The translations under genes and the position numbers were made by a program. Below, piece by piece: positions 1 through 440 of a stretch of DNA of 440 nucleotides. The stretch lies in NCBI RefSeq assembly GCF_003334385.1, contig NZ_QOWN01000181.1. The stretch is one strand, 5' to 3'. The notes below the pieces were generated by a model. It did not search any database, was not told the origin of the DNA, and saw only the letters and a program-made list of their open reading frames with translations. The DNA comes from Escherichia coli (GTDB taxonomy: Bacteria > Pseudomonadota > Gammaproteobacteria > Enterobacterales > Enterobacteriaceae). Every line of letters starts with the position of its first letter. Position 1 is the first letter of the stretch.

Positions 1-440
1 GCCGTGGTGTGGACGCCCGTCAGCCTTCCCGTGTCGCTGTAACGGTACTCCCGGCTCTCCTGCGGGCCGCTGATGCGGATTAGCTGTCCGTTGTCGTTCC
101 AGTCGTAGTCACGGTCAAGCTGCGGAAGGTTCAGGTGCCTGCTCCGGAGCTGGCCGCTGGTATTCCAGGCGGTGGCAAGTTCATATGCCTCCCCGCCGAA
201 GCTGCGGGCCGTCTCACGGTGCAGCCTGTCCCGCGTGTACTCGACCAGCGGTGTTCCGCCCAGCTTCATCCCCGCAAGATAACCGCTGCCATACGTCAGC
301 CACTCCACCGGCGGCAGACCGTCCGGCTCCTGACGGGTCGCCAGCCCCTGTTCGCTGTACGCATGCCCCGTCTCATGCTCCCACAGCATCTCCCCCGTCT
401 CCGGGTTCTCCACCGTCTGCCGTTCGCCCGTCAGGCGGCC
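1..440 (-). CDS. rhs: Rhs family protein, internal fragment of the conserved YD-repeat core (partial at both ends; N-terminus toward higher coordinates, C-terminus toward lower coordinates)
   Basis: Seen in sequence: the minus-strand frame starting at base 440 is open for 146 codons (bases 3-440 in frame, bases 1-2 a partial codon), and all five other frames contain stops. Third-position GC is about 83% (121 of 146 codons end in G or C). The translation contains YD-repeat motifs (EYRYSDTGRLTGV, DRDYDWNDNGQLIRIS, GRLTGE) and the block VEWLTYGSGYLAGMKLGGTPLVEYTRDRLHRET, which I recognise from memory as part of the E. coli Rhs core. The family call is established knowledge plus recall, not a database search. 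Which paralogue (rhsA, B, C, D or another) cannot be decided from this fragment. Confidence 0.92.

Follow-up and report, generated by a model that had tools for sequence, protein, structure and literature searches.

The Rhs cores of Escherichia coli fall into the three subfamilies of Hill, namely rhsABCF, rhsDE, and rhsGH, and in a survey of 20 genomes the cores were found to cluster by position, with Clade I cores from separate loci judged to recombine 'infrequent (if any)' (Jackson et al. 2009, PMC2935791). The same work documents displacement of the rhs tip by homologous recombination, for which the conserved core serves as homology. Counterparts with solved structures are found among T6SS Rhs effectors, including Tse5 (8cp6), P. 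protegens RhsA (7q97), Tse15 (8uxt), and Rhs-Vgr (8qja), which possess a YD-repeat core homologous to that of the gene studied here (E = 1e-112 to 1e-61) but differ from it in having distinct N-terminal adaptor and C-terminal toxin domains, and in being only ~30-40% identical over the region analysed. By homology to these effectors, the core would fold as a YD-repeat shell around a C-terminal toxin of variable type, with delivery through VgrG. RhsG was reportedly placed at minute 5.3 in a 1998 abstract, which we take to be the position of the hcp-vgrG-rhs-ISAs1-yafV locus described below, and Hill reportedly found in 1998 that the DNA of the RhsG-H core differs by ~22-29% from the cores of RhsA-B-C-F and RhsD-E.

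The window, that is, the whole 440-nucleotide stretch of E. coli DNA analysed here, is a single open frame (146 aa) when the minus strand is read from base 440, and all peptides quoted in a preliminary description of the sequence lie within this frame; the ORF listing for the plus strand of the window contains ORFs of at most 36 aa only. The GC content is 66.6%, with a GC3 of 83%. The window is 100% identical to positions 9001-9440 of the NCTC86 locus (L001; the K-12 counterpart is L016), within CDS 6721-10953, annotated "RHS element core protein", and window coordinates are obtained as 2721 minus gene nt. Against the NCBIfam RHS_core profile the window aligns with positions 756-905 (E = 3.5e-78). 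The parent protein (L001:6721-10950) scores 2487.6 bits against NCBIfam NF041261 RHS_core (equivalog; profile positions 3-1261), above the curated cutoff of 2000, and carries DUF6531 close to its N-terminus, YD repeats in 6 stretches (TIGR01643, E = 5.3e-48), and, outside the window, the Rhs-associated core domain TIGR03696 at aa 1180-1257 (E = 7.2e-23). It is homologous to the solved T6SS Rhs effectors, with E = 1e-112 for Tse5 and 8e-81 for P. protegens RhsA.

Annotated Rhs genes identical to the window at 100% are present in hundreds of complete E. coli genomes. Some match was obtained in 3,708 of 5,426 complete genomes, and a match of at least 99% in 550 records. At the same level, the left half together with the central block is matched in 825 records and the right half in 1,187, counts that are suggestive only, given that a 99% threshold permits different numbers of mismatches at different query lengths. 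Of the matching places among E. coli genomes, 11-12 are on plasmids, not chromosomes, indicating that the Rhs core is occasionally plasmid-borne.

In NCTC86, tssB/C/E/F, hcp, and vgrG are found immediately upstream of the Rhs gene, and the window's gene therefore shows the linkage to vgrG/hcp and a T6SS cluster by which T6SS effectors are recognised. A vgrG gene upstream of the Rhs core was also found in L007, L008, L010, L011, L012, L014, and L015. On its downstream side the NCTC86 Rhs gene overlaps a small ORF, after which come an ISAs1 transposase and yafV-ivy-fadE. The upstream tssC (L001:797-2271) is annotated as frameshifted in NCTC86, and the T6SS expected to deliver the NCTC86 Rhs may be inactive in that strain. 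The variable C-terminal tip (L001:10321-10950) gives a weak Pfam match to the YkuD L,D-transpeptidase catalytic domain (E = 6.2e-5), which hints at a putative peptidoglycan-targeting toxin. The downstream ORF (L001:10931-11323, 130 aa), which overlaps the Rhs gene and matched no NCBIfam family, is a likely candidate for the immunity gene. The entire T6SS-vgrG-rhs region is absent from K-12, where the counterpart order is aspV-yafT-yafU-yafF-yafV. Homology between NCTC86 and K-12 begins again within the 3' part of ISAs1, corresponding to the yafF pseudogene beside yafV, and K-12 keeps only the last ~280 bp of ISAs1 (H-repeat; L016:5099-5379 versus L001:12610-12890); this arrangement is consistent with deletion of the Rhs element in the K-12 lineage.

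DNA identity of the window is 73-75% to RhsA/B/C and 78% to RhsD/E, in agreement with the divergence figure for RhsG-H, and divergence from the K-12 cores is strongly heterogeneous along the whole core. On the basis of map position and of the subfamily statement in PMC2935791, we identify the window's gene as Hill's RhsG (RhsG-H). With RhsG/RhsG-H ('position 1', Clade I, in PMC2935791) it shares adjacency to yafV/ivy/fadE, a location directly downstream of vgrG, a GC-rich core, 22-27% DNA divergence from RhsA-C and RhsD-E over the window, and loss in K-12; there is no demonstrable difference between the two, the likeness being one of locus and divergence rather than of the ECOR-11 sequence. 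The preliminary description had proposed either a different core subfamily or another enterobacterial lineage. The former is correct (69-73% protein and 73-78% DNA identity to all K-12 cores) and already known, and the latter is not needed, the sequence being E. coli. Gene, family, and subfamily (recognised since 1998) are all previously known, and, because the window is identical at 100% to a known Rhs core over its full length, above the 95% that the preliminary description had named as refuting its proposal, nothing new is implied by it.

The same description had drawn attention to a block of 33 residues (bases 210-308; window residues 45-77, VEWLTYGSGYLAGMKLGGTPLVEYTRDRLHRET) as a near-exact match to the K-12 cores and flanked by more divergent sequence. 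Identities computed per segment bear out both points, with 30-33 of 33 residues identical across RhsA-E in the block and 58-84% protein identity in the flanks (Table 1). When the match/mismatch vector was shuffled, the best 33-aa window proved better than chance for both RhsA (p = 0.003) and RhsD (p = 0.0004), as did the uninterrupted identity over 36 residues shared with RhsD (p = 0.0001). At the DNA level, 93 of the 99 nt in the block are identical to RhsD (94%, the highest of the segments), with identical runs of up to ~38 nt. The gene has other peaks of this kind: windows that begin at aa 903 and aa 1200 of the full-length core are at least as conserved against RhsA.

Table 1. Features of the window, their identity to K-12 Rhs proteins, and junctions in related mosaic alleles (positions in window bases; C- and N-terminal refer to the encoded protein).
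Feature	Window bases	Strand	Protein identity to K-12 cores	Characteristics
Internal Rhs core fragment, aa 761-906 of 1,410	3-440	-		Part of the YD-repeat shell (by homology) of a T6SS-linked Rhs toxin; RhsG-type allele, vgrG-rhs-yafV locus
C-terminal flank	1-209	-	Bases 3-209: RhsA/B 67%; RhsC 67%; RhsD 58%; RhsE 58%	Variable, indel-prone, RhsG-specific type; 70-73% DNA identity to all K-12 cores; indel site between 192 and 193
Conserved motif W-L-x-Y-G-S-G-x-L...Y-x-R-D-x-L-H-R-E	210-308	-	RhsD 33/33; RhsA/RhsB 32/33; RhsE 31/33; RhsC 30/33	Strong purifying selection; zone of homology with crossovers between diverged Rhs cores
N-terminal flank	309-440	-	RhsA/B 66%; RhsC 59%; RhsD 80%; RhsE 84%	RhsD/E-like (83-86% DNA versus 70-73% for RhsA/C); window-specific patch at ~318-339 (ATRQEPDG versus ANRVTPDS)
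Junction in L014 (strain hubt-sl, vgrG-yafV locus)	237-255			Window-like down to base 255, RhsD-like from 252/237 on
Junction in L011 (strain 124611, vgrG-yafV locus)	208-237			Window-like to base 237; RhsD-like patch from 208 to ~140 with 15-nt insertion; then window-like
Junction in L010 (strain 3CM, pptA/yddH locus, fits RhsH)	279-318			RhsD-like to base 318, window-like from 279

Taken together, we hold it to be probable that the window is an ordinary piece of the RhsG core in which the block is a constrained motif, crossovers occur in or beside that block, and affinity to other cores switches at ~209/210. Of this reading, the identity of the gene, the pattern of selection, the switch, and the junctions in other alleles are shown by the data. 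Near-invariance relative to K-12 reflects selection against changes in the protein, with synonymous sites left free to diverge. Constraint on the block would keep its DNA similar and thereby provide homology between diverged Rhs cores, and homologous recombination or gene conversion between these cores would be resolved in the block and at its edges. Bases 1-209 are a poorly constrained and indel-prone stretch that exists in several types, of which the window has the RhsG-specific one, joined at ~209/210 to a tract closer to RhsD/E. That exchanges are resolved in or beside the block is suggested by the DNA similarity of the block in combination with the occurrence of several types of post-block segment.

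Evidence for the switch is provided by three-taxon site patterns, expressed as the numbers of sites at which the window agrees with RhsD, the window agrees with RhsA, and RhsD agrees with RhsA. The ratio is 138:34:55 in the adjoining tracts (block included) versus 12:19:29 in bases 1-209 (gene nt 2512-2720; chi-square versus the adjoining tracts, p = 1.3e-7), and the change of affinity at ~209/210 yields p = 1.2e-4 using window data alone. The position is therefore a genuine switch, the sequence being RhsD/E-like upstream and approximately equidistant from RhsD/E and RhsA/C downstream. A K-12 RhsD/RhsE core is like the window in the block and throughout bases 210-440 (83-94% DNA identity, the window grouping with RhsD/E here), but carries a 15-nt insertion that is absent from the window and is only 70% identical over bases 1-209. 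The N-terminal flank gives 17, 5, and 13 sites for the three patterns, respectively, and no affinity switch was seen at 308/309 by this measure. The idea that the window itself once recombined at 308/309 was considered and is unsupported, as this flank still groups with RhsD/E. Of the two breakpoints that had been suspected near the block boundaries, only that at 209/210 is thus retained (p ~1e-7 to 1e-4), with no change being found at 308/309.

Synonymous divergence from RhsD follows the same layout. Of the three segments the block has the lowest dS (0.28), the N-terminal flank stands at 0.40, and bases 1-209 reach 0.67 (dN 0.32), compared to 0.40-0.47 in the upstream tracts and 0.34 further downstream; the contrast inside the short window alone is modest (16/58 versus 21.5/48 synonymous differences to RhsD). 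Along the full-length core, RhsD/E-like tracts extend over aa ~672-837 (nt identity 0.80-0.94) and aa ~914-1056 (0.85-0.95; third positions at most 0.94), separated by a trough at aa ~837-903 (0.65-0.77), and divergence from RhsD is much greater over the first 660 aa of the protein (dS 1.09).

It is conceivable, though in our opinion unlikely, that the window's history includes no recombination and that the step at 209/210 reflects heterogeneity of constraint, with the motif lying beside a fast-evolving loop and both having evolved in place after the subfamilies separated. The dN/dS ratio of 0.03-0.09 in the block versus 0.36-0.56 in bases 1-209 agrees with such a reading, as does the fact that the post-motif region is variable and indel-rich across the family, and the raised ratio does indicate that the identity step is partly due to selection that is relaxed or diversifying, and not to a difference in ancestry. 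A change in rate alone, however, cannot reverse the balance between RhsD-like and RhsA-like sites from 138:34 to 12:19, nor does it explain the doubling of dS to RhsD, and the segment corresponding to bases 1-209 demonstrably moves between backgrounds in other alleles.

These alleles were identified by aligning nine further E. coli cores that span the range of identities, and by scoring sites at which the window and RhsD differ as either window-like or RhsD-like. Three of the cores, L014, L011, and L010, show junctions in or near the block (Table 1), each with a maximum chi-square permutation p <= 0.002. Two others, L012 and L013, have a third type of post-block segment, and at least four types of the segment at bases 1-209 are found among the E. 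coli cores, in differing combinations of flanks. Two-parent maximum chi-square results for HCP30 and WP2 are weak (p = 0.016 and 0.12, respectively) because what these alleles contain is not RhsD sequence but a third type. When bases 210-440 and bases 1-209 are placed in separate neighbour-joining trees, the two are discordant: the distance of L014 to the window is 0.013 in the former and 0.287 in the latter, whereas that of L010 is 0.121 and 0.010, respectively. The 3CM core (L010) resembles RhsD everywhere but at gene nt ~2400-2900, where it has a patch of window type. A mosaic core, one of the possibilities raised in the preliminary description, is hence upheld by the switch at 209/210 and by the junctions in other alleles; the block as the exchanged tract is not, its dS to RhsA (1.25) exceeding that of the flanks. 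All cores in the site-pattern and tree analyses are from E. coli, and the direction and age of the exchanges can be inferred only.

Differences elsewhere in the gene are also confined to patches. L012 (HCP30S3_I2) is 100% identical to L001 over most of the gene, an identity that extends to the toxin tip and to the immunity gene (WP_001101839.1), and differs at 6-15% of positions in a single ~600-nt patch (gene nt ~2050-2650) that overlaps the window, which looks like a clean example of internal conversion. At gene nt ~1426-1650 (L001:8146-8370), L007, L011, L013, and L014, which are alleles of the same vgrG-yafV locus, are only 55-74% identical to NCTC86, and 90-100% identical on either side, so that a further internal patch of much greater divergence is present here.

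While the window itself is ordinary, a known E. coli Rhs core whose conserved block is accounted for as a family-wide motif, comparison across thousands of complete genomes makes visible an exchange of internal Rhs core patches between loci and subfamilies, with junctions that cluster at the motif. Like the tip displacement described by Jackson et al. 2009 (PMC2935791), this uses the conserved core as homology; the exchanged pieces here are, by contrast, internal core patches of ~100-600 nt, moving between loci and subfamilies. Exchange between loci qualifies the conclusion of rare recombination drawn from 20 genomes (PMC2935791) and fits the known role of core homology in rhs recombination. 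A literature search for core mosaicism in E. coli rhs returned Jackson 2009 as the sole relevant paper. Typing markers and core phylogenies based on rhs are affected, as exchange of internal patches makes a single tree per gene misleading.

A more elaborate reading, to which we give little credence, is that the motif and the indel-bearing segment (~140-209) form a cassette system, in which the four or more segment types would be shuffled among the RhsG, RhsH, and RhsD/E loci with the motif acting as an anchor. If true, this would imply that a functional surface is under diversifying selection, perhaps for compatibility with a particular VgrG, chaperone, or enclosed toxin, and Rhs polymorphism would reach from the C-terminal tip into the core, in contradiction to the view that between-locus core recombination is nearly absent.

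Returning to the reading of a constrained motif in an ordinary RhsG core, conservation of the block can be traced to the protein. Relative to RhsA (Nei-Gojobori), the block has a dS of 1.25 with a dN of 0.035 (dN/dS 0.03), versus dS of 0.79 and 0.69 and dN of 0.22 and 0.25 in the flanks; relative to RhsD, dS is 0.28 and dN is 0. Identity at third positions to RhsA/B/C is ~0.5 in the block, not above that of the flanks. The combination of high dS and low dN points to purifying selection on the protein rather than recent sharing of DNA. The pattern extends well beyond E. coli: among 38 homologs with under 45% identity to the window, the block retains 51% identity versus 25% for either flank, the residues YGSG and RD-x-L-x-RE hardly vary in distant homologs, and family-wide conservation is low directly after the block. 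In the solved effectors, which include Pseudomonas and Acinetobacter proteins, YGSG...RD-x-LHRE aligns with the block, reading WLTYGPGHL...FERDALHRE in Tse5, LYYGSGHL...FQRDRLHRE in P. protegens RhsA, and LVYGSGHI...FQRDDLHRET in Tse15, and the motif also aligns in PDB entry 8qja. The block is thus a family-wide motif, conserved across Proteobacterial Rhs proteins, under purifying selection and not recently shared DNA, and its conservation suggests a structural role in the YD-repeat shell.

These data bear directly on the notion that the block is a recent gene-conversion tract from a K-12-type core (RhsA/B/C or RhsD) with breakpoints at 209/210 and 308/309, which we regard as very improbable. 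Protein identity does step from 59-84% to 91-100% and back, and DNA identity to RhsD does peak in the block (94%), as would be expected of such a tract. Nevertheless, 47% of the identical block codons differ synonymously from RhsA/B/C, and the dS to RhsA exceeds that of the flanks; this synonymous divergence rules out that the block arose by recent exchange with RhsA/B/C. With respect to RhsD, the block dS is not distinct from that of the upstream tracts or the sequence further downstream, and the high-identity tract spans aa ~672-837, beyond the block. Retention of the motif in distant genera likewise argues against a tract of recent origin and for the constrained motif.

Finally, the suggestion that the mosaics are assembly chimeras from collapsed 3.7-kb Rhs repeats, prompted by the fact that a genome holds several Rhs cores (a median of 2-5 places), which are similar enough to mislead short-read assemblers, can be practically dismissed, since each mosaic type recurs at 99-100% identity in independent complete genomes from differing laboratories and hosts (273 records for the L011 type, 47 for the L014 type, and 13 for the L010 type, at >=99%), and the window type itself recurs in 550 records. 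One record matching the L014-type mosaic at 100% is NZ_CP026085.1 (positions 3804972-3805426), a sequence of 4,833,062 bp with five Rhs places that is labelled 'Escherichia coli strain DH5alpha'. True K-12 records match the window only via rhsD, at ~80%, and NZ_CP026085.1 may be mislabelled or not a K-12 derivative.
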